Source: a virus
IMG/VR virus record: IMGVR_UViG_3300030099_008323
Span: 32,001 to 96,000 of that record
Length of the DNA: 64,000 nucleotides
Reading direction: 5' to 3' (one strand)
Each line of letters starts with the position of its first letter. Within the stretch, counting starts at the first letter, position 1. The translations under genes and the position numbers were made by a program. Below are positions 3,254 through 34,989 of this stretch, piece by piece. The notes under the pieces were generated by a model. The model was not told the origin of the DNA and made no database searches. It saw only the letters and a list, made by a program, of their open reading frames with translations.

Positions 3254-5530
3254 TTACCTTAGTCTTTCAACTAGTCTTTTCTTAATATTTTCAAACGTGG
3301 CATCGCCAATAGTATCACCATCAAGCTCATTGATGATTTTTATTACGTCTCCTCTAGCCATGCCGGCGGCGACCATCTTTTCAACCATGCTATCTGAAAG
3401 CTGCTCAATATTCTCTAATCTTCTTGTCTCCTCTGCGCCGACAAGTCTGTCGATGGCGTCTTGGTTCGCTTTCCTTATGGCCTGGCTTATAGCTATTGAA
3501 TCTTTGATTCTTGCCAGTCCCTCTGCACCACCTTCTGGCGTGGCTCTATCAGTGGCAGCGCTTCTGCCAATATCTGCCTCTGTGAGGGTAGCGTCGTCCC
3601 GAACGACCCTTTTTGCGATTCTAAGCGCTTCCTCTTTATCGTTGTTCTCAAAAGCCTCACGCATCAGGCGCTTGTCGACTTCGCTAGCTTTATTGTATAC
3701 ATCGACACCAACAAAACCTATTACTCCAGTGCCAATTCCTATTGCGCCGGCTACAGTTTTTAATGAGTCAGCCACTGTCTTGAGTCTGGTTGCTAATATG
3801 CCAGCTGTGCCTTGCATGCCTTTAAAGGCTAAAAGCATGCCAATTGCAGCCTTTTCGCCATCTTGAGTTTCTTTTTTTGCTTGTATGAAACCTTTTGCAA
3901 TCGCTTTTGATCCTTTTTCTGCTAAATCTCTAGTTCTTGCAGTGAATTTTGCAAAGCCGGCGCCTTGTCTTGAAACTGAAGCAGTTACTAATTCCATTTG
4001 TGTCATCGTCTCACGGAGCTTTGTTCTTAGCTCACCAGTTGACATTGCGCTGGTTTTTATTGATTCATTTGCTTCTTCAAAATCATCTTTTGCGTTTAGA
4101 AGTCTCGCGGCCATCTCGACACTTTCGACACCCAAAGCAGCTGCTGTAGCCAATTTCTGAAATTTTCCAAATTCATTAAAGCTTTTGCCACTTTTAGCAA
4201 AGGCTGTCTGTATAGCAGTTATTTTATCTGGCAAATCCATCTTTGCTAGTTCAATGCCAGACACGTACATACCACCTAATTGTGCATTAAATCTTTGCGC
4301 AAATTCTGCTGCGCCCTTAAAAGTATCAAGTTTTTTTGCAAACCCATTTAATTTACCAACCTCAATTCCCGTTGCACGAGCTTGAGCTGCCATCCTAGCA
4401 AAAACTTCTACAGCATCATCACCATACGTAGCAAGGTCTGGCATGAGAGAGGTAAAATCTTTAACAGCTTGACCGGCAGACATGTTTAAAGATTCAGCTA
4501 AAGTTAGCAAAGATCTGGTTGACTTCATGGCCATTCTTGGTGTAGCGCCCAAGGCTTTGACAAACTGATCGATTGCTTTACCTGAATCAGCCTCTGCAAC
4601 GCCCATTTTTTTGAGGCCGGCGACCATGTTAAGCATTGCTTTTGTTGTGGTTTTGTCTGATGAACTTAATTGCTGTCTAAAGGTCGCAACGTTTTGTATT
4701 AACACACTCATTGCCGCAGAAACGTCTTTAGACTTTAAGCCTATATCTTGCAGGCCAGCCGCAGTATAGCCAATTGGCTCATCTGCTTTATTAAACGCTT
4801 CTGTTAAGCCTTCAACCGATGTGGGGTCAAACGCGCCAATGAACGCATCTTTCATATCCGAACCTAAGAAACCAGTTGTTTTTGCGACTGCTCTAAGACT
4901 GTCATCAAATGATTTAAATTCAGTCTCCATCGCCTCCAAAACCTTTAAAGGACCAAGCTCTGGCTTGAATATAGCCAACGTTGTTAAAGCTGGGCCGGCT
5001 TCATTAAGGATTGTCTTAAGGCCGCCCACCGCACCTTTAGCAGCAGATACTGCAAAATCTCTTACATCTGCTGCTGCAGCTTTGTTTTCTAAGGCTCTGC
5101 GTCGACGCTCACTGGCTAATGATTCCTCTGATTCATTGATCTTGCGATTAGATTCTTCAATCGCGCGGGAAAGGTCCTCTGCCTCTTCTCGGCCAGACAT
5201 CTGAAGTTCTGACAGTTTGTCTTGAGTTTCCTCATAGTCTTTTGCCCTTTGCTTATAATATTCAGCTAGACGTTCTTGATCCCTAGCTTCTGCGTCAGCG
5301 CTCTCGCGCCGGAGTTCAGCAGCTTTTCTCTCGGCTTCTGCCGCTAATGATTCAGATTCTTGTTTAAGTCGAACATATTCATCTAATTGATCTGAATTTT
5401 GTCTCAGTGCTGCTCTTAATTCTTTTGCCCGAGCAATTTGAGCGTCATTATATTTCTTGTCAACTTCATTTAGCTTTTTAAGCTCTTTGATTAAATTTTG
5501 TACTTCTTCTGGTGTTCTTGGAAGAGACAT
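3254..5530 (-). CDS. Tape measure protein
   Basis: 758 aa, Ala/Lys/Glu-rich helical, N-terminal coiled coil, Gly/Ala hydrophobic stretch; follows tube and chaperone genes. Confidence 0.8.
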   Translation of the reverse strand: MSLPRTPEEVQNLIKELKKLNEVDKKYNDAQIARAKELRAALRQNSDQLDEYVRLKQESESLAAEAERKAAELRRESADAEARDQERLAEYYKQRAKDYEETQDKLSELQMSGREEAEDLSRAIEESNRKINESEESLASERRRRALENKAAAADVRDFAVSAAKGAVGGLKTILNEAGPALTTLAIFKPELGPLKVLEAMETEFKSFDDSLRAVAKTTGFLGSDMKDAFIGAFDPTSVEGLTEAFNKADEPIGYTAAGLQDIGLKSKDVSAAMSVLIQNVATFRQQLSSSDKTTTKAMLNMVAGLKKMGVAEADSGKAIDQFVKALGATPRMAMKSTRSLLTLAESLNMSAGQAVKDFTSLMPDLATYGDDAVEVFARMAAQARATGIEVGKLNGFAKKLDTFKGAAEFAQRFNAQLGGMYVSGIELAKMDLPDKITAIQTAFAKSGKSFNEFGKFQKLATAAALGVESVEMAARLLNAKDDFEEANESIKTSAMSTGELRTKLRETMTQMELVTASVSRQGAGFAKFTARTRDLAEKGSKAIAKGFIQAKKETQDGEKAAIGMLLAFKGMQGTAGILATRLKTVADSLKTVAGAIGIGTGVIGFVGVDVYNKASEVDKRLMREAFENNDKEEALRIAKRVVRDDATLTEADIGRSAATDRATPEGGAEGLARIKDSIAISQAIRKANQDAIDRLVGAEETRRLENIEQLSDSMVEKMVAAGMARGDVIKIINELDGDTIGDATFENIKKRLVERLR

Positions 5531-5775: not shown

Positions 5776-6609
5776 CCCCGCATCAAGCGGGACCTCCTTC
5801 ATGCTCACAAACCCACAATGTGCGCACTGAAATTCCTGCTTTAAGTCAATGCTCGGAATTATTTCAACATATAATTTTCTAAGAAATTTTGAGTCTGATG
5901 CCGGCATATGCTCGACAAAAGATCTAACTTGCTCTCGATCAAAACTGCCCTGCACTGATACAATTAACTTTGATAAAGTTTGAGTGACAGTGCTATTTGG
6001 ATGCACATCATCGAACGTGTCAAAATCTTGTCCAGTCATCATTCTAAACCCAACAGTTATCTGACTATTTGGTAATGTTAAGACAAAAATTCTGTTTTCT
6101 TCATCAAATGTTAGGTTGTGCTTGCTTAAGTACTTAGCGTCAGTAAATTTGGTGTTTATAACGCCTTTTTTTAGATTAAATTCAAACTCTTCTGTAACTT
6201 TTCCACACTCTGTACATGGAACAGATGCAGTGTAATTAGCTCCATAAGCTGATACCCTTGAAGCAATCATAATCGCGTTCCTATCACCAACCAGTAGTGT
6301 TCTAGGATTAATTCTTTTGTCTACGATTAAACTTTCTATGAGTCTCTCAACTAGCAATCCATTACGAAATAGCTCTTCTGAAGCTAATAGATCCTCTTCT
6401 TTAGCAGTCATATACTTAATTTCTATTTCTTGCTTTTCAAAAAGTGGATGATCTTGTGGATAGAACTTGCCTTTTGATGGAAGACGCACGAACTCCGTAG
6501 GCACGGAGTAAAGCGGTTGCGGTGCTGCGTCTTGACTAGCAAACTGAGCTGCAGGTTGAGCTGCAGGTGACCCAGGTACATGCCCGAGTCTAGTTTGGTT
6601 GTTGCGCAT
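5758..6609 (-). CDS. Baseplate hub assembly / tail assembly chaperone (T4 gp26-like)
   Basis: VRLPSKGKFYP...IKYMTAKEEDLL...GDRNAIMIASRVSAYG, two CxxC motifs (CTEC, CAHC), ends FFWPE; between tube and tape measure. Confidence 0.7.
   Translation of the reverse strand: MRNNQTRLGHVPGSPAAQPAAQFASQDAAPQPLYSVPTEFVRLPSKGKFYPQDHPLFEKQEIEIKYMTAKEEDLLASEELFRNGLLVERLIESLIVDKRINPRTLLVGDRNAIMIASRVSAYGANYTASVPCTECGKVTEEFEFNLKKGVINTKFTDAKYLSKHNLTFDEENRIFVLTLPNSQITVGFRMMTGQDFDTFDDVHPNSTVTQTLSKLIVSVQGSFDREQVRSFVEHMPASDSKFLRKLYVEIIPSIDLKQEFQCAHCGFVSMKEVPLDAGFFWPE
5769..5792 (-). other. Slippery GGGG-U7 site preceded by GC hairpin (frameshift site and/or intrinsic terminator)
   Basis: Coding strand TCCCGC-TTGAT-GCGGGG-TTTTTTT-GG; frame 0 reads FFWP, +1 frame reads FFGL. 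Confidence 0.55.
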
Positions 6610-6629
6610 TTAAGCCTCTCTTGTTAAAT

Positions 6630-7208
6630 TTATGCTATGATCTCACCGACATTGCTTCGATATTCAGCAAAGTCATACTTGAGCGTTAGATCTACAGTTA
6701 CCAAATCATTGCTACTGTAATCCAATCCCTCACCGAACTTACAACTAGTAATCCAAGCATTAATAAGCTCCCACTCATCAACAACATTTGGATTTAATTG
6801 AGTTGCTCCGGAGCCTGCCTCTTGCAAGCCAACGACGCCGCCGCCATCGAGCTGGCGAATTACAACACCGCCGATAGCACCGACCGAAGTTTGCTTGGTT
6901 ACAGCGCCTTTGTATTGGTCAATCGTACTAGGCAATAAATAGCCCATGTTTATCAAAGTATCATAGAACTTGCTACCTATATTTGGCTCGACAGCATCTA
7001 CAAAACTAATAGAAACATCTTGCCACTGGACAATGTTTGGAAACTTAAATTCATGATTTAAAAATCTGTGTGAGGTAGACTCAATATTATAACTGGGCTT
7101 TTGCGCAGTTTTTGCCATGAAAACGAGATCTTCACCTAGATCGCGAAAATGAACTGAAAATCTAAATTTCCTTTTAGGTTGAAAATTGTTAGCTGTGAAA
7201 AATGGCAT
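6630..7208 (-). CDS. gp19: Tail tube protein (gp19-like)
   Basis: FQPKRKFRFSV...WQDVSISFVDAVEP...VVDEWELINAWITSCKFGEGLDYSSNDLVTVDLTLKYDFA; directly after sheath; SD AGGAG. Confidence 0.9.
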   Translation of the reverse strand: MPFFTANNFQPKRKFRFSVHFRDLGEDLVFMAKTAQKPSYNIESTSHRFLNHEFKFPNIVQWQDVSISFVDAVEPNIGSKFYDTLINMGYLLPSTIDQYKGAVTKQTSVGAIGGVVIRQLDGGGVVGLQEAGSGATQLNPNVVDEWELINAWITSCKFGEGLDYSSNDLVTVDLTLKYDFAEYRSNVGEIIA

Positions 7209-26273: not shown

Positions 26274-27860
26274 TTACCCCTTTAGCAACCAAGAGAAGTT
26301 TTCATACTGTTCTCTTTGTTTGTCAATTTTTTTATCTCGTCGCAACTTATCATATCCTATCATACCTGGTATGCTCGTGTTCAACTTTCTATCCGTAGAA
26401 GACAAAGAAGAAAGAAAAGCTTTTTGATATTGAATATCCCTTTGGTTAACATCATATGCTACTTCCCTAACCCAACACCCAATCGCACAAGCCATGATCA
26501 AATCATCATTATATTTTTTCATAGCCTGTGGTTTGCCGTTGTGCCAAACAAATGTCCTCATTTCATCATGTAATCTTTTTGATTTTATATTAATTAGTTT
26601 ATTTCTAACAAACTCTTCTAATTTAGCGACGATCAAAGGTCTTGTCTTCATTGTAGTTGAAAAGCCAGGTACAACAGAATTCATTCCTTCAGCCTGTAAT
26701 GGATCAACATATTCGTGTGTGGATTTTTTAGAATAATACACATTAGGATATCCTACCTCAATCAGTTTATTTACAACTGTCCAGCCAACAGTGTTGTTCT
26801 CAACTACAATCATACAATTTCCAAATTCTCTACCAATTGATAGAAGCATGTCAGAAAAAACATCTGGAGTGGGCTTTCCTTGATATTCTGCAATTATTTC
26901 ATTTGTTTCAATTTTAAATATCATGAAAGTTGAATAATCTTTTCCGTCTCCTCTAGCTACATCTGCAGCTAGCATATAGTTGCTCTCATTTTCATATTCT
27001 TCCCATATCCACAAATTTCTATCAAAGCCTGTTTTATACTTTGGCTCGCATATATCTTTAGAGATTATTTCTAAATCCTCTGGGTGAAAGACAGTCTCAC
27101 CAGACATGTTGAAATTACATTCAAGCTCTTGTGCGATTTGACGTCGAGACATGTTTCTAGTTTCTTTCTCAAACCAAGATTTGTCTCTTTCAGGATGCAC
27201 ATCCCAAGGTAAAGTTGTGATGTAGAAGTTATTTTTTTCAGACTGCGCATCAACACAAGTTTGGTGAAACCAGTTTCCTACACCATTCGGCGTTGACAAA
27301 GCAATACAGCGCCCACCAGTTGAGAGAGTTGGATAGAGGCCTGTCCATAATTCATCCAAACCTTCAACATGTGCTGCCTCATCAATGACAAGCAAAGATA
27401 AAGCCTCAGAGCGACCAGCATCTGAGCTTGTAGAACTAGCTTTTATTTGTGATCCATTTGATAACTCAAAAGAAGTTCTATTATCAATTGAAATGTTTGA
27501 TATGCGCATCCAGTTTGGTAAATTTTTGTGTATTGATTTTACTTTCTTTACCAAGTTTGCAGCAGTGCCAAATTTTGTGGCTATGACTAGAACATTTTTG
27601 TCGCGGTGAAACAGCATCAGCCAAGCAATATAAGCAGCAGATATAGTAGATATACCTAACTGGCGCGCCTTCAAAACAACGTTAAAGCGATGATCATTAA
27701 AATCATGTAGAAGTGTGGTCTGAAAATCGTAAGTCTTAAAAGGAATTAATCCATGCATCGGATGAGATATTTTAGCATAGTTGTTTATAAAATAAACAGG
27801 ATCCTTGCCAGATTTTAAGATTTCCTTTACTATATCATCTTTTGTTAGCTGAAAAGACAT
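26274..27860 (-). CDS. gp17: Terminase large subunit (gp17-like)
   Basis: Walker A-like LKARQLGIST, Walker B LLVIDEAAH, LSTPNG motif; nuclease AADVARGDGKDYS and NDDLIMA. Confidence 0.95.
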   Translation of the reverse strand: MSFQLTKDDIVKEILKSGKDPVYFINNYAKISHPMHGLIPFKTYDFQTTLLHDFNDHRFNVVLKARQLGISTISAAYIAWLMLFHRDKNVLVIATKFGTAANLVKKVKSIHKNLPNWMRISNISIDNRTSFELSNGSQIKASSTSSDAGRSEALSLLVIDEAAHVEGLDELWTGLYPTLSTGGRCIALSTPNGVGNWFHQTCVDAQSEKNNFYITTLPWDVHPERDKSWFEKETRNMSRRQIAQELECNFNMSGETVFHPEDLEIISKDICEPKYKTGFDRNLWIWEEYENESNYMLAADVARGDGKDYSTFMIFKIETNEIIAEYQGKPTPDVFSDMLLSIGREFGNCMIVVENNTVGWTVVNKLIEVGYPNVYYSKKSTHEYVDPLQAEGMNSVVPGFSTTMKTRPLIVAKLEEFVRNKLINIKSKRLHDEMRTFVWHNGKPQAMKKYNDDLIMACAIGCWVREVAYDVNQRDIQYQKAFLSSLSSTDRKLNTSIPGMIGYDKLRRDKKIDKQREQYENFSWLLKG

Positions 27861-28421: not shown

Positions 28422-28787
28422 TTATTTATTATTTTTGCAAGGGACATGTCTTTCATATTTTTCTATATAACATCTCTCACAGCACAAGTACTTAATCATG
28501 TAAATATCGTCATTAATTGATTTAATTCTTGTATTACACAGAGTACAATTTAATTTTCTCTCTTTATTAAGTAGTTTGCGGGTTATTAAAACACCGTCAA
28601 CATTTTCTAGTTCAGACGTGTGCTCAAAAGACTTCTCTTTATCAATACGCTCTTGTAATTGTTGTATATATTCTTCTTCTTTATCTCTGTTCCAATAACT
28701 AGCTGGATTCTGTATAGCCTCTTCACCATATTTTTTTTTAATTGCCTTTTCAAGACCAGCTATATAATTTAGATCTTTTTTGCTCAT
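28422..28787 (-). CDS. Small zinc-finger protein
   Basis: Start moved to ATG 28787 (ATGA overlap); MSKKDLNYIAGLEKAIKKKYG...CTLC...CCERC. Confidence 0.65.
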   Translation of the reverse strand: MSKKDLNYIAGLEKAIKKKYGEEAIQNPASYWNRDKEEEYIQQLQERIDKEKSFEHTSELENVDGVLITRKLLNKERKLNCTLCNTRIKSINDDIYMIKYLCCERCYIEKYERHVPCKNNK

Positions 28788-29245: not shown

Positions 29246-29647
29246 TCACCCTTTTTTTAAGAACTCTGAACTTAAAATTTTTGCAATGTCCTCTGCTAAC
29301 TTTTCAGGTCTATCTTTGTTTTTTTCAATTGTTTCTGCAAGCTCTTTTTGCTTTTCAATTTCAAGCTCTTCAACTTTGATATCATGTTCTTCTTCAATTT
29401 TTCTGATTTCTTCAACGTGTTCTTCAACAGCTTGCTCTTTTTTAACGTCTTTTTGTTCATTGACTTCCTTTATAACTTTTATTTCTTTTTCGTAATTCTC
29501 TTTAGACTTCATCAAAAGACCAAAAAGCTTCTCTTTCAAGCCTTTACTGGACACCATTGAAAATATCAACAATATTATTATAGCAGGCCAATACCAATAA
29601 TGTTTAACCCAAGTCCAAACTTTTTTCCAAAAAAGTGCGGAAAGCAT
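29246..29647 (-). CDS. N-terminal TM + charged coiled-coil protein (i-spanin-like topology)
   Basis: True start probably ATG 29647 (TAATG overlap with the Cys-rich peptide): MLSALFWKKVWTWVKHYWYWPAIIILLIFSMV then an E/K-rich coil. Confidence 0.7.
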   Translation of the reverse strand: MLSALFWKKVWTWVKHYWYWPAIIILLIFSMVSSKGLKEKLFGLLMKSKENYEKEIKVIKEVNEQKDVKKEQAVEEHVEEIRKIEEEHDIKVEELEIEKQKELAETIEKNKDRPEKLAEDIAKILSSEFLKKG

Positions 29648-29763
29648 TAGCAACCACCGCAACTCACACACTTGCAGCAAGCGCAGCAAGCTTTGCAGCA
29701 TTCTTCTATGCAGCAGCATGCTCTCTTAAATAAGTTTAAAAATTTCTGTAATAATGATTTCAT
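29647..29763 (-). CDS. 38-aa cysteine-rich micropeptide (metallothionein-like)
   Basis: Not in track; MKSLLQKFLNLFKRACCCIEECCKACCACCKCVSCGGC*; AGGAG SD 7 nt upstream; stop overlaps the next ATG. Confidence 0.75.
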   Translation of the reverse strand: MKSLLQKFLNLFKRACCCIEECCKACCACCKCVSCGGC

Positions 29764-29779
29764 TTGTTTTCTCCTGTAA

Positions 29780-30049
29780 TTATTGATTAAAGCGCCCTAG
29801 TCGATGGATAATTCTATCCAAATGTACTTCAGTTTTCATATCTCTAAGAGAACTCAAGGCTAAATCCATGCTATCATATTTCAAGCCTCTTGCTCCTTTT
29901 CTAAGACCCTCAAGTACTTGCTTTAGCCTTGCAGCTGCCATTTGTATTTGTTTGGCGGCTTCGATTCCCTCCTCGGGACTAAAAGCAGACTCAGCATTCT
30001 CCAGCTCTTCTTTAATAATTTGTTTTAATTTTGATCTTGTAATCTTCAC
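29780..30049 (-). CDS. Hypothetical protein with MKITRSKLKQIIKEELE N-terminus
   Basis: GTG 30049 overlaps the upstream TGA and has GGAGG 9 nt upstream. Confidence 0.65.
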   Translation of the reverse strand: MKITRSKLKQIIKEELENAESAFSPEEGIEAAKQIQMAAARLKQVLEGLRKGARGLKYDSMDLALSSLRDMKTEVHLDRIIHRLGRFNQ

Positions 30050-30240
30050 TTTCCGTGCCTCCATTGTGTTGCGAGGTCGACAAGTGCTTGTGACCCAATA
30101 TAAGCTAATGTGACTGCAACCCAGTCCTCGCTAGTCAAAGCGTTCATATAAACGAGATACGTAGCTGTACCCCACGCTAAAAACTTTCTTGAAATAAATC
30201 GCTCGACGTGTTTGTCAAGCCATGCTCTTACTTGTGACAT
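30046..30240 (-). CDS. Small two-TM membrane protein, holin-like
   Basis: 64 aa; SRKFLAWGTATYLVYM and WVAVTLAYIGSQALVD hydrophobic segments with a basic C-terminus, resembling small phage holins (SRKF motif). Confidence 0.55.
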   Translation of the reverse strand: MSQVRAWLDKHVERFISRKFLAWGTATYLVYMNALTSEDWVAVTLAYIGSQALVDLATQWRHGK

Positions 30241-30261: not shown

Positions 30262-30269
30262 TAAATAGT
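30262..30269 (-). promoter_or_regulatory. Putative late-promoter motif ACTATTTA
   Basis: Exact motif, 21 nt before ATG 30240. Confidence 0.6.
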
Positions 30270-30296: not shown

Positions 30297-30695
30297 TTAA
30301 AGACCTGTGAATGTAATTCTTTCACGATCGATACCCATATTATTTTTCCTAAGAAGATCTTGTATACTATCTCGCACAGCTTCTTTTTGTGAGTCCGTAA
30401 TTTTCTTATATGTATCGCGCAGTTCATCATCTGTCATGCTAGTTTTAGTTAGAGATCTCATAAGATCAATGAAAATTTCAGGTGTGACCTGTATGTTATT
30501 AACAACTTTTACAACCGGCCTTATCTTTATCTGCTCTTCTTCTGACTCCGGCGGGAGCTGTGGCGTCGACACATCTAAACTTTGGCCTCCAATCGTTGAT
30601 CCATGGTCTTGGTCAGAATATGGAAGAGATCTACCTCCGCGAGTAGCTTCAGACTCACTAACATATCTTCTCCAATTTTCAAACAATTGTTTCAT
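30297..30695 (-). CDS. Hypothetical protein with MKQLFENWRRYVSE N-terminus
   Basis: 132-aa ORF; promoter motif 5 nt upstream and no SD. Confidence 0.65.
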   Translation of the reverse strand: MKQLFENWRRYVSESEATRGGRSLPYSDQDHGSTIGGQSLDVSTPQLPPESEEEQIKIRPVVKVVNNIQVTPEIFIDLMRSLTKTSMTDDELRDTYKKITDSQKEAVRDSIQDLLRKNNMGIDRERITFTGL

Positions 30696-31786: not shown

Positions 31787-34700
31787 CTACTCATTAACAT
31801 ATGCCTTGCCTTCTATTTTCTCAATCATAATTTGCCTGTCGACAATATCCTTCAGAGAATCTAAGTGTGATATTAAAAGCACAGTTTTAAACTGAGTTTT
31901 GATCATATCTAAAATTCTAATAAATCCTTCCATATTTTCAGCATCCAAAGCAGTGCCTGGCTCATCCAAGATGAATATGTCACCTTTTGGAAGTGTTGAT
32001 ACATTTAATAAAGCAAGGCGAATGGCCATAGCTGCAATAGTTTTCTCTGCTCCGGAGCCCATCTCAATTGGGCGTGCGTCATAACTCGGATGCTTTATCA
32101 GTATATCAAGTTTCTTGTCATCATTTTCAAAGAAAACTTCAAAGTCAACAATGTTTGTCAATATTTTAGAAATCTCATCGTTTATGAGAGGAAGTCTTTT
32201 TTTAATTATATCATATGAAATTCCGTTTGCATGCATGCAGCGCATAAAAAGATCAGCGGTTGTATAGGCCTGCTGCATATCTTCATAGCTATTTCGCTGT
32301 GCAATTAACTCCGTATTTTTCTGCTCAAAACGACCAACTGAGGTGTATAAATCGATTAATTCTAATTTTTGTGTTTCTACTATCTTCTCCAAAGATAATA
32401 TTTCTTGTGATAGGTGTACTTCTTGTTTCTGTAGATCTTCAAGATTTTCTATAACTTCTCTATTTTCTTCATAAAGCTTCTCTTTTTCTTCTAAGGTTTC
32501 TAAAAGAGAGCTAGCTTTTAAAAGTTTAATCTTATCTTTCTCAATATCAATTTTTAGAGTTGACACCTCATTTCTTATAGCTACACCTCTCTCTTGAAGA
32601 AGAATATATTTACTAGAATATTCATCTAGCTTGTCGACATTCATTTCGTCTAACTTATTCTGTAAAGTTTTTTTATTTAGAGTTAGTTGATTTAAGCCAA
32701 TTTTAACTCTGTTTGTGTCATCGATTGCATATCTAGCATCAGAAACAAAATAACATTTTTCTTGCAGCTTGTGATTACACGGAGCAGATTTAAGCAATTC
32801 AATTTTTTTCTCAATTATCTGCTTTCTTGCCTTGTGCTTTGAAATTTTGTCTTCAATTTCCTGCAGCCTTTGTATAAATTCACTTGCAATTTGTTTTTTA
32901 TTATTAACATCTTCAATGTCGAAGCTATCAATAAAATTTTCAATTTTCTGTAGGAGTGCCTCTTCATCAACTACCCTTTCTCTTTTTTTCTTGAGATTGA
33001 CTTCTATCTTTGAAGCTTCAGTTTTAACAGTCTTCAATTTATCTAGAACTTGTTTAATATCAATTACTTCATTAGGAATTGATTTAATTTGATTTTGTAT
33101 GCCGCTTAAAGAATTTTTACAAGTCTGCAAAGCCAATATTTTTTCTTCGCTTAATCTTTGACGATTTAAGAGCTTTGTCTCCACTCTAGCTAGTTCAGTA
33201 TTAGATTGTTTTATTTCTTCATTTAAATTACGATCGGACATCTTACGAATAGCGCCTTTGAGATCGCTTGATTCGTCTTTTGCTAGTTTAAACTTCCGCT
33301 CAAAAATCTCTAAATCTAAAAATTTTGCTAATATTTCTTTTCTTCTTGTAGAACCTTCATTGATATAAGATAGTGATTCCAGCTGACTGGCCATTGAGGT
33401 AGTAAGAAAATCCTCAATTGTTCCAAATATTTTACGAATATTTTTGTCAGTTTGCATCCTGGTGATGCCGTTTAGGCTGGTGCTTACATCAGTTGCGTTA
33501 TCATAAACATTAAACTCTACATCAGTTTTCGCCTCATCAGTTTCTTTTCCTTTTAACTTTTTAGTGTATTTAGTGCTTTTTCTTTCAATACTATAGGTTT
33601 TAGTGCCTATATCAATCTCAACATAGCCGCGGCACCAGTCTTCGTCCTGGTTGATAAGATTAAAATTCTTCCTATTGTTTTTTGAAGTTGTATTGTATAT
33701 GGTATACAGGATACTATCAATAATACTTGATTTACCGGAAAAATTTTTTCCTAAGATGCCAACAATCCCCTCCATTTTTGAAAAATCAATACAATTTGAT
33801 TCTCCATAATTAAAAAGATTATCCCACGCGACTTTACTAAACTTCCAATTAATGTTTCTTCTTACATCCTCCTCATCTTCAACAACAGCGTTAAATTTTC
33901 TGTTCATATCAAAAACTTGTTTGAGCGCGGTAGAGCTTGGTTGGTAGTCCTTTAAGTATTCGTCAATAAACTCCTCTTGTACTGCGATATCGCGGAGATC
34001 TTCTTGAATTAAGCCATTTGTTAGTTCTTCAACAGAGCCTCTGTCGCCGGCAGATTTGTTCAAATAAGTAATGGCCTCGGGCTTAAAACGCACCTTAGCA
34101 ACATCTACCGCGCGCCTAACAACATCTAACGGCAAATTATTCTCAGAAATTAGCCGTAATCTTGCATTTTTTTGCACTTCAAGCTTATTAGGCAGTCTAC
34201 CTTTAGGAGTCAGTCTAATAGTTATAAAAGGCTTGGGATTGCGTAAAATTATATGCTTGCAAGTAAATGTATCTTTACCTTTGATATCCCAAATCAAAAA
34301 ACCTTTATCGTTGGTTTCCCCGTGGTTTTGTTGTACCGTCGAACCCGGATAACGTATTTTTCCCGCTTTGTCAAGGGCTTGATTGGTTTTGTGTATATCT
34401 CCAAGAAAACCATAATCAAAATTATTAAAAATATTAATATCATCTTCACCGTGCTCCATTGTCCAACCGGTATCAGTTTTTACGCCGCTAATCGAGCCAT
34501 GATACAGAGCAATATTAATTCGCTCGTTGCAGGTGGGATTTTGCCAATTATCTCTATCGAAAACCGAAAGGACATTAATAGTAAATTTCTCATCTAATTT
34601 TGTCTCTCCTGAGTTCTTAAGTAAATATAAGTTTGTGTGATTTAAAGCATCAATAATTGGAGATAAGGCATCTTGACGACTTGAGTTTTTCAAATTACCA

Positions 34701-34942
34701 TCATGATTGCCTAAAATCACATATGTTGGTGCAATATCTGCTAAGCTCGATAAAAAATTTGAGCACATTTCAACAAACTCTGGACTAATTTGAGTTTTTG
34801 TATGGGCAATATCTCCGCAATGTACAATGTAATCGGGCTTTTCTTGTCTCAGCTTCTCATATAAATTTTTAAAAACAGTTCTATATTCTTTGTGATATTT
34901 TAAATTACGAATGTGAGTATCTGCTATGTGTGCAAACTTCAT
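31787..34942 (-). CDS. sbcCD: Mre11-Rad50 (SbcD-SbcC; gp47-gp46) fusion nuclease/ATPase
   Basis: Metallophosphoesterase motifs ADTH, HCGD, GNHD, LGDIH; then Walker A GKNFSGKSS, Q-loop SMASQ, long coiled coil, signature GSGAE, Walker B FILDEP, H-loop ISH. Start ATG 34942 with GGAG SD. Confidence 0.92.
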   Translation of the reverse strand: MKFAHIADTHIRNLKYHKEYRTVFKNLYEKLRQEKPDYIVHCGDIAHTKTQISPEFVEMCSNFLSSLADIAPTYVILGNHDGNLKNSSRQDALSPIIDALNHTNLYLLKNSGETKLDEKFTINVLSVFDRDNWQNPTCNERINIALYHGSISGVKTDTGWTMEHGEDDINIFNNFDYGFLGDIHKTNQALDKAGKIRYPGSTVQQNHGETNDKGFLIWDIKGKDTFTCKHIILRNPKPFITIRLTPKGRLPNKLEVQKNARLRLISENNLPLDVVRRAVDVAKVRFKPEAITYLNKSAGDRGSVEELTNGLIQEDLRDIAVQEEFIDEYLKDYQPSSTALKQVFDMNRKFNAVVEDEEDVRRNINWKFSKVAWDNLFNYGESNCIDFSKMEGIVGILGKNFSGKSSIIDSILYTIYNTTSKNNRKNFNLINQDEDWCRGYVEIDIGTKTYSIERKSTKYTKKLKGKETDEAKTDVEFNVYDNATDVSTSLNGITRMQTDKNIRKIFGTIEDFLTTSMASQLESLSYINEGSTRRKEILAKFLDLEIFERKFKLAKDESSDLKGAIRKMSDRNLNEEIKQSNTELARVETKLLNRQRLSEEKILALQTCKNSLSGIQNQIKSIPNEVIDIKQVLDKLKTVKTEASKIEVNLKKKRERVVDEEALLQKIENFIDSFDIEDVNNKKQIASEFIQRLQEIEDKISKHKARKQIIEKKIELLKSAPCNHKLQEKCYFVSDARYAIDDTNRVKIGLNQLTLNKKTLQNKLDEMNVDKLDEYSSKYILLQERGVAIRNEVSTLKIDIEKDKIKLLKASSLLETLEEKEKLYEENREVIENLEDLQKQEVHLSQEILSLEKIVETQKLELIDLYTSVGRFEQKNTELIAQRNSYEDMQQAYTTADLFMRCMHANGISYDIIKKRLPLINDEISKILTNIVDFEVFFENDDKKLDILIKHPSYDARPIEMGSGAEKTIAAMAIRLALLNVSTLPKGDIFILDEPGTALDAENMEGFIRILDMIKTQFKTVLLISHLDSLKDIVDRQIMIEKIEGKAYVNE

Positions 34943-34989
34943 GTATTCTCCGGTCATAACAATATAAAAACAAAATATTTATTGTATTG

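Follow-up and report, generated by a model that had tools for sequence, protein, structure and literature searches.

Metallothioneins are proteins of low mass in which cysteine accounts for at least about 15–30% of the residues, arranged in CC, CxC and CxxC motifs within a cysteine domain that lacks aromatic residues. The representatives used here for comparison are the vertebrate alpha-domain (CCxCC), the 25-residue fungal Cu-thioneins, the bacterial SmtA/BmtA proteins and MymT. Among other short systems, mycobacterial polycysteine leaderless short open reading frames (ORFs) act as attenuators (Canestrari et al., bioRxiv 10.1101/834739), and phiKT gp28 is a 56-residue phage-encoded cationic amphipathic lysis peptide (bioRxiv 10.1101/515445). 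We analyzed a small gene, designated cys38, in a stretch of viral DNA of 64,000 nucleotides, positions 32,001 to 96,000 of the IMG/VR record IMGVR_UViG_3300030099_008323, which is hereafter called the window. The best reading of its 38-residue product, to which we assign a probability of roughly 0.45, is that of a metal-thiolate micro-protein built on a conserved amphipathic helix, a function that we infer from the sequence. The product resembles metallothioneins in being tiny and cysteine-dense, with about 12 potential ligands, and its mass, cysteine content and cysteine motifs agree with the description given above. Its canonical relatives add two invariant histidines, a likeness to SmtA, which uses histidine. 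Unlike metallothioneins, it has a conserved N-terminal amphipathic helix, shares no sequence homology with them, is phage-encoded in one copy per genome and would bind metal by prediction, and its canonical relatives contain five adjacent cysteines. To judge from composition, cys38 is chemically close to the metallothioneins, yet it lies outside every described family.

The cys38 frame lies on the minus strand (Table 1) and is absent from the ORF track of the window, which reads an overlapping frame. The first-pass annotation had proposed it as a hidden gene for a 38-residue peptide with 12 cysteines, preceded by a strong AGGAG Shine-Dalgarno (SD) sequence and overlapping the next gene through TAATG, and all of these features were confirmed. 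The product, MKSLLQKFLNLFKRACCCIEECCKACCACCKCVSCGGC, has a mass of 4.1 kDa. All 12 cysteines reside within the last 23 residues as one CCC run, three CC pairs and three single cysteines, and make up 31.6% of the peptide and 52% of this tail. The 15-residue N-terminal helix, which contains two phenylalanines, had been described as amphipathic and cationic; residues 2–15 indeed display a hydrophobic moment of 0.70, a value matched by 0.9% of shuffled sequences, and a net charge of +4. The N-terminal region is amphipathic and charged, not hydrophobic. Neither a signal peptide nor a lipobox ([LVI][ASTVI][GAS]C) was found in cys38, and F-K-R-A precedes the first cysteine. An AlphaFold2 model based on a seven-sequence alignment places a helix at residues 3–18 with low confidence (predicted local distance difference test score, pLDDT, 58) and is usable for the helix only. 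Among the 2,397 six-frame ORFs of at least 20 residues in the 186,103-bp genome, the runner-up has six cysteines in a 23-residue segment versus 12 in cys38, which is the extreme and unique cysteine outlier of the genome, beyond chance. The overlapping frame is a 157-residue ORF, the first 24 codons of which are unconserved. Because relatives start the downstream gene, g134, at ML..FWKK, which corresponds here to position 29647, this extension is spurious, and the true start of g134 is at the MLSALFW position.

Comparison with related phages indicates that cys38 is almost certainly a real gene under selection. The first-pass annotation had named conservation of the cysteines in such phages as a check and loss of the frame or pattern as refuting its claim; the claim passes, as 13 related contigs keep the frame and the cysteine pattern, together with the 38-codon length, the start and the stop. 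One 38-codon homolog was found on a contig retrieved via TerL alone (L002), with homology that runs exactly from the ATG to the TAATG. Four others (L228, L229, L233 and L234) were found on contigs with a near-identical copy of the upstream gene g64, without any use of the cysteine pattern, and a degenerate DNA pattern for CCACCKCVxC returned seven metagenome contigs, all seven of them carrying true homologs. In codons outside the search pattern, the proportion of synonymous differences (pS) among the homologs is 0.55–0.98 versus a proportion of nonsynonymous differences (pN) of 0.12–0.18; synonymous changes are near saturation, and TGC and TGT swap freely at the cysteine codons. The cys38 frame is the sole frame open in all copies. 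It is kept in three arrangements, g64-cys-g134, g64-cys-g94-g134 and g64-g94-cys-g134, the last being that of the window, and on contig L209 the homolog sits inside an array of g94-like genes. A TAATG or TAGTG junction is common to L207, L205, L208, L229, L233, L234 and L285. The substitution pattern shows the helix and the cysteine positions to be under purifying selection.

The first-pass annotation did not recognize cys38 as a divergent representative of a large family whose core is H-CCCCC-G-CC. A strict pattern consisting of the N-terminal helix plus H-CCCC matches 47 contigs in IMG/VR, with 41 distinct peptides of 31–34 residues, one truncated form and one 49-residue form being set aside from this range. 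The family consensus is MKxΦLH(K/R)LxNLFNxxHCCCCCGCCxCxxCxGxC, and canonical members keep ten cysteines and two invariant histidines (His6 and His16). In canonical codons 21–26, which are free of the pattern, pS is approximately 1.0 and pN is 0.09; Asn13 and Gly22 are retained with all synonymous codons in use, and variation is confined to the last five residues. A GGAG-type SD sequence precedes nearly all 47 members, and the stop codon overlaps the next start in many of them. The identifiable downstream neighbours (n = 37) include 21 g94-like, 10 g132-like and three g134-like genes. Two divergent members were found on contig L231, which was reached via g64 and encodes MRLLLHKLANLFKSNH followed by CCCCCGCCTCASCSGAC, and on contig L235, found by the N-terminal pattern, where MKKILHKLANLFKNH precedes a 12-cysteine tail. 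The six large genomes of the clade (G000–G005, five relatives having been fetched whole) contain exactly one member each, at differing loci. The family is undescribed, widespread in large ocean phages and carried once by every clade genome examined. A variant member on contig L307 (12876-13022) has a 16-residue basic C-terminal extension ending in RRGRPRKKK; this AT-hook-like tail may hint at contact with nucleic acid or may be a read-through artefact.

The window peptide belongs to this family by its N-terminus, MKSLLQKFLNLF, which fits the motif M-(K/R)-x-Phi-L-(H/Q/D)-(K/R)-Phi-x-(N/K)-L-F; it aligns with the N-termini of eight further members, and the motif is common to the 41 canonical peptides. 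Residues L5, K7, N10, L11, F12 and K13 of the helix are invariant across subtypes. Its 38 residues, with 12 cysteines in 23, also fall within the family size of 31–38 residues with at least ten cysteines in at most 23. It shares with the canonical family the N-terminal motif, the SD sequence, the coupled stop and the single copy per genome, and with one canonical member, that of L285, the genomic slot. By contrast, the canonical H-CCCCC-G-CC-x-C core is replaced by CCC-IEE-CC-KA-CC-A-CC: Q6 and A15 stand in place of the two histidines, a six-codon insertion splits the run of five cysteines, lysine and glutamate occur inside the tail, and the peptide has 12 rather than ten cysteines and 38 rather than 31–34 residues. 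Because both histidines are lost and the core differs, the window peptide represents a separate subtype and not the canonical form.

A direct counterpart is provided by L285, a contig from a near-identical phage in which g64, g134 and the further downstream gene g152 are 97%, 94% and 93% identical to those of the window, respectively. It carries a canonical member, MKSLLHKLANLFNSKHCCCCCGCCVCANCSGTC, in the same slot between g64 and g134, directly before g134. The two DNA sequences share the GAGGAGGAAACAA-ATG leader with its SD sequence, the ATG AAA TCA TTA start and the TAATG end; the Q6/H6 exchange is a single-base change, and an 18-nt in-frame indel falls within the cysteine run. Because the canonical form occupies this slot in L285 and the DNA matches, the window peptide and its 13 close homologs are regarded as a divergent allele. 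The His-less 12-Cys subtype and its positional orthology with a canonical member are new here. Both main types offer 12 potential ligands, and the window and L285 constitute a natural allelic pair in a near-identical context, with 12 cysteines and no histidine in one and ten cysteines and two histidines in the other.

Protein searches with the peptide returned no relative. No match was found with phmmer for the 38-residue peptide against 1.84 billion representatives, in a word-indexed search of 5.8 billion clusters with the 43-residue stop-to-stop read, or in the ESM Atlas, and a profile search of the PDB retrieved only a designed coiled coil (E 2.1). Pfam gave no match up to E 0.1 for the window peptide or up to E 10 for canonical members, and none was obtained for cys38 in NCBIfam or PHROGs. 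All ten members tested, that of the window included, are absent from a collection of 15 billion proteins. The protein searches are blank because gene callers never call these genes, either preferring a longer overlapping frame or skipping such short ORFs; in every one of the cys38 homologs, the gene was left uncalled by the source annotators. At the nucleotide level, blastn with the region and tblastn with a canonical member found no match in 50,697 cultured-phage records, and a scan of bacterial and archaeal genomes gave two matches, neither of which is a family member. A literature search on phage metallothioneins or cysteine-rich phage micro-proteins found nothing relevant. The earlier statement that no characterised phage gene is alike is borne out by these family and literature searches. 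Whatever its function, the family is under strong selection yet leaves no trace in protein databases.

The mechanism that we favour starts from a genuine gene, predicted to be well expressed, whose product has two parts, a helix followed by a C-terminal cysteine string. The 15-residue cationic helix would dock the peptide either to a partner or to the membrane, on its inner face, and the peptide would remain in the reducing cytoplasm, a location that follows from the lack of an export signal. There, the 12 thiolates might wrap a small metal-thiolate cluster of Zn(II), Cu(I) or Cd(II), or possibly an Fe-S cluster. During infection, the peptide could buffer or donate metal stoichiometrically, or it could be a module whose action depends on metal or redox state. 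Metal binding, cellular location and benefit to the phage are all deduced in this scheme. The first-pass annotation had called the peptide metallothionein-like; this stands as the most plausible chemistry, since the tail combines CC, CxC, CxxC and CxxxC motifs with interspersed lysines and small residues and has no aromatic residue, a composition that fits, whereas no described metallothionein family is matched. The exchange of two invariant histidines for two extra cysteines is easier to reconcile with metal ligation than with acylation or with a role based purely on hydrophobicity. Such sharp conservation of the helix would not be expected of a generic membrane anchor, and the helix probably recognizes a partner.

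Several observations weigh against a metal-thiolate function. Neither metallothionein families (e.g. PF00131, PF01439 and PF02069) nor any other family is matched, and the AlphaFold2 model is of low confidence (pLDDT as given above). The five adjacent cysteines of canonical members are unusual even among metallothioneins and are commoner in cysteine-string, streptolysin-S-type and attenuator sequences. The ligand count varies, with 11 cysteines and two histidines in L231 and 12 cysteines and two histidines in L235. Finally, the NLF(K/N) helix is so sharply conserved that it resembles a specific recognition element. If the peptides do bind metal, they would give phages their first known metallothionein-like protein class, present in one copy per genome in an abundant marine T4-like clade, and phage infection would be linked to the trace-metal or thiol economy of the sea. 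A broader proposal, that large ocean phages carry a near-universal, single-copy, helix-tethered metal-cluster micro-protein, overlooked by every annotation pipeline, that forms a new virus-specific metallothionein-like class through which metal or redox state is controlled at one defined stage of the infection, with the window allele as a naturally re-tuned metal site, is less likely than not in this full form.

The alternatives are best judged against the genomic setting. The window derives from a single phage contig with 37.6% GC, and the minus strand carries every gene in it. Its TerL shares 43% identity with that of Flavobacterium phage immuto, the nearest TerL among cultured phages, and approximately 30% with gp17 of T4-like cyanophages. 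The source is a distant T4-like marine myovirus with more than 200 relatives in IMG/VR, in which the gene order g64, g134, g152, g121, g181, TerL is kept. A profile search with g64 found 827 relatives, counted as protein clusters of ocean metagenomes and all of them unnamed, a figure that speaks for the abundance of the clade, and no Pfam match. The g152 product combines a signal peptide, a coiled coil and a C-terminal membrane helix. In most relatives, cys38 begins on the g64 stop codon (ATGA). The accessory gene g94 is one of a set of paralogs that begin with (M/V)KIT(K/R)S(K/Q)LKQIIKEEL. Because six of the 35 related loci hold inserts between g64 and g134, which directly abut in the remaining 29, this junction is regarded as a slot for accessory genes. 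The CTATTTA motif that heads the g64-g94-cys38-g134 string recurs as CTA(T/A)TTA 27–43 nt before the start of the cysteine micro-gene in many relatives; of 40 distinct family loci, 14 have it no more than 80 nt upstream of that gene, as compared with 2.3% of background windows, an enrichment of approximately 15-fold that makes it a candidate clade-specific promoter element.

Table 1. Features of the cys38 locus and its surroundings. Positions refer to the window unless a contig or genome is named.
Feature	Position	Strand	Description
cys38	29647..29763	-	38 codons, 12 Cys; ATG 29763-29761, TAA 29649-29647
cys38 codons 1-15	29719..29763	-	conserved cationic amphipathic helix MKSLLQKFLNLFKRA; family signature N-terminus
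cys38 codons 16-38	29650..29718	-	cysteine-string tail, 12 Cys in 23 residues; no His, no aromatic residue
Shine-Dalgarno AGGAG	29771..29775	-	7 nt before the cys38 ATG
TAATG	29645..29649	-	cys38 stop shares one base (last A) with the ATG of g134
157-residue ORF	29246..29719	-	overlapping frame of the ORF track
g134	29246..29647	-	core gene downstream of cys38; 133 residues; N-terminal membrane helix and charged coiled coil
g94	29780..30049	-	accessory gene; likely GTG start (GTGA) overlapping the g64 stop
g64	30046..30240	-	conserved 64-residue protein, two predicted membrane helices
CTATTTA	30262..30268	-	promoter-like motif, 21 nt before the g64 start; heads the string g64-g94-cys38-g134
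(M/V)KIT...KEEL family	29780-30049	-	window member
(M/V)KIT...KEEL family	G000 143252-144781, 169043-169339; L209:4346-6583		G000 members outside the window
MK(x)L(F/L)ENWR family	30297-30695	-	window member
MK(x)L(F/L)ENWR family	L004:7524-8201; L012:7298-7777; L235:5569-6027		further members
TerL	26274-27860	-	terminase gene
g121	28422-28787	-	core gene
1,056-residue ORF	31787-34957	-	phosphoesterase and SMC_N/AAA_23 fusion

This setting first calls to mind a peptide of the inner membrane that modulates g64, g134 and g152, either as a redox-triggered switch at membrane breach or as a disruptin-like agent. The cationic amphipathic helix and the fairly hydrophobic cysteine string would suit such a role, and the gene lies between genes for a two-helix membrane protein and an N-terminally anchored coiled-coil protein in the window, in the 13 contigs of the same subtype (type 1) and in L285, L295, L325 and L327, often with overlapping stop and start codons. 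A precedent exists in gp28, which is likewise small, cationic, amphipathic and encoded among membrane-protein genes, although gp28 has 56 residues and no cysteine cluster. The slot in the window fits such a role, but the many members located elsewhere do not: in 29 of the 35 loci, no cysteine gene stands between g64 and g134, the family member being located elsewhere in the genome, and the neighbours are membrane proteins none of which matches a holin, endolysin or spanin family. No match to these or to any other named family was found for the small neighbourhood proteins in Pfam, PHROGs or NCBIfam, none was found for g134, and no endolysin is encoded near cys38. Moreover, the helix spans only about 15 residues, and the strongly conserved part is the cysteine core, which known lytic peptides lack. 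A membrane or lysis function is therefore improbable in our estimation. The first-pass suggestion of a redox-controlled lysis timer beside a holin-like gene was overstated, as most members are located elsewhere in the genome; the term holin-like for g64 is a guess from topology, because no holin family is matched. In the eukaryotic cysteine-string protein DnaJC5, a dense cysteine string beside a basic segment confers affinity for membranes, and cys38 shows the same juxtaposition. The DnaJC5 string works via DHHC palmitoylation, and we know of no such enzyme in bacteria or in this phage.

The frame might instead act as a cysteine-sensing leader ORF, in which scarce Cys-tRNA would make ribosomes pause on the cysteine codons and thereby alter downstream translation, with the peptide as a by-product. 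The documented mycobacterial polycysteine attenuators resemble cys38 and its relatives in being unannotated short ORFs with consecutive cysteine codons (three to five in this family) that open an operon and whose translation is often linked to that of the following gene. In the phages, the promoter-like motif is often followed first by this gene (14 of 40 loci), the stop codon commonly overlaps the start of the gene behind it, and a phage cysK lies beside or close to the micro-gene in L316 and G003. Unlike those attenuators, cys38 has an SD sequence and is not leaderless, its peptide is constrained, its downstream genes do not serve cysteine metabolism, and no conserved structure that sequesters the ribosome-binding site was found. 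Selection on amino acids is strong outside the cysteine run, where it acts on the helix at the N-terminus, on N13, H16 and G22 and on the spaced cysteines, and the varied downstream genes counted above include none for cysteine metabolism. A hairpin is predicted over the stop/start region of cys38; its fold is no better than that of shuffled sequences (z +0.70), the covariation term is negligible (-1.05) and one of 37 pairs is compensatory. Rfam gave no match for the region. Taken together, these points leave attenuation as a distant alternative to the metal-thiolate function.

Two paralogous families adjoin the micro-gene in many genomes. The (M/V)KIT(K/R)S(K/Q)LKQIIKEEL start, approximately 16 residues long, is found in at least six genes of the window genome and in 24 distinct genes of relatives, ahead of unrelated bodies of 64–317 residues, and they follow the cysteine micro-gene more often than any other genes (21 of 37). 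The second, g132-like family, with the N-terminus MK(x)L(F/L)ENWR(K/R)Y(I/V)NE and variable bodies, occupies the same hyperplastic slots and supplies ten of the 37 downstream neighbours. Shared N-termini ahead of unrelated bodies, the KIT...KEEL type in particular, recall the capsid-targeting sequences of T4 internal proteins; alternatively, they may represent a recombination handle for gene shuffling.

It is accordingly conceivable, if doubtful, that the cysteine peptide is virion-associated, either packaged or bound to the particle along with the g94 and g132 families, where it might be an internal head peptide or, once in oxic seawater, a disulfide "glue". This idea draws on the 31 of 37 identifiable downstream neighbours that belong to the two families, whose first 15–17 residues are near-identical within each, and on the basic RRGRPRKKK tail of the L307 variant. 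However, a capsid-targeting role of the flanking families is itself conjectural, and cys38 shows no significant N-terminal similarity to the g94 motif (p approximately 0.6 for the window copy), so that its interpretation as a degenerate g94-family motif was rejected.

A ribosomally synthesized and post-translationally modified peptide (RiPP), with an N-terminal leader and a cysteine-rich core that is heterocyclised or cross-linked as in streptolysin-S-type thiazole/oxazole-modified microcins (TOMMs), ranthipeptides or sactipeptides, is very improbable. The outline is as expected, with an N-terminus that is conserved and a tail end that varies more, and the C5-x-CC pattern resembles streptolysin S cores. 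Like SagA-type TOMM precursors, the peptide is short, with a recognition-like N-terminal segment ahead of runs of adjacent cysteines with small residues. The enzymes are missing, however: genes for cyclodehydratase and dehydrogenase, including YcaO, occur in none of the six genomes, MNIO (DUF692) is absent from the window genome, and no radical S-adenosylmethionine (SAM) enzyme is encoded in G004 or G005, two complete genomes with a copy of the peptide gene. No modifying enzyme adjoins the micro-gene in any of about 60 loci, cys38 has no Gly-Gly-type site, its tail is almost devoid of Ser and Thr, and the core is strongly conserved and not hypervariable. The leader-plus-core option of the first-pass annotation is thus not supported. 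Its call for a search for peptide-modifying enzymes did yield a radical SAM/SPASM protein in the window's own genome, but this lies in a sugar/phosphonate-like cluster at a distance of 60 kb, and five relatives lack it; as it does not travel with the family, it was rejected as a partner gene. Lipidation, which had also been suggested, and identity as a lipoprotein or o-spanin are disfavoured, as there is no signal peptide, lipobox or acyltransferase.

The notion that cys38 is no gene at all, being a chance frame or the off-frame shadow of a coding or RNA element, draws on the frequent origin of cysteine-rich frames off-frame over GCA/CAG-rich genes, artefacts that make up most matches to a loose cysteine DNA pattern in IMG/VR, and is refuted by the conserved start, stop and length, the single open frame, the contrast between synonymous and nonsynonymous change, the SD sequence, the retention of the frame in three genomic contexts, the unconserved 157-residue extension and the lack of an RNA signal.

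The accessory cluster with the radical SAM/SPASM gene (L214 and L215; G000 approximately 120.9-129.2 kb, outside the window) also encodes a B12-binding radical SAM protein, a fragment of a thiamine pyrophosphate-dependent enzyme, a GT47-like glycosyltransferase, an NAD epimerase and a ketopantoate hydroxymethyltransferase, and looks like a sugar/phosphonate modification pathway. On contig L235, the start of the micro-gene overlaps by 20 nt the 3' end of a gene for a 4HBT acyl-CoA thioesterase (5055-5465), which was rejected as a partner because it is absent from the window genome. A glutaredoxin-like gene with an N-terminal hydrophobic segment follows approximately 700 nt downstream of the L235 micro-gene (6264-6698), and a similar one is located approximately 1.6 kb downstream in G004. 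Genes for a CysK-like cysteine synthase (PALP family) occur at G003:126944-127792, G002:72409-73227 and G004:150206-151030, as well as on L316, where the gene directly follows the micro-gene. They are thus present in three of the six genomes (three of the four complete relatives) and not in that of the window, and are next to or near the micro-gene in G003 and L316 only; cysK does not travel with the family and was set aside as a partner, although a phage cysK may hint at a high demand for cysteine.

Two further genes of the window deserve mention. The core gene g121, situated between the membrane-protein genes and the putative small terminase gene, has no family match, and its product ends in a CxxC...CCxxC...C arrangement that is likely a zinc-binding motif. 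The 1,056-residue ORF upstream of g64 combines a calcineurin-like phosphoesterase of the Mre11/SbcD type with an SMC_N/AAA_23 region of the Rad50/SbcC type, and several relatives (L217, L218) have the same fusion immediately upstream of g64.

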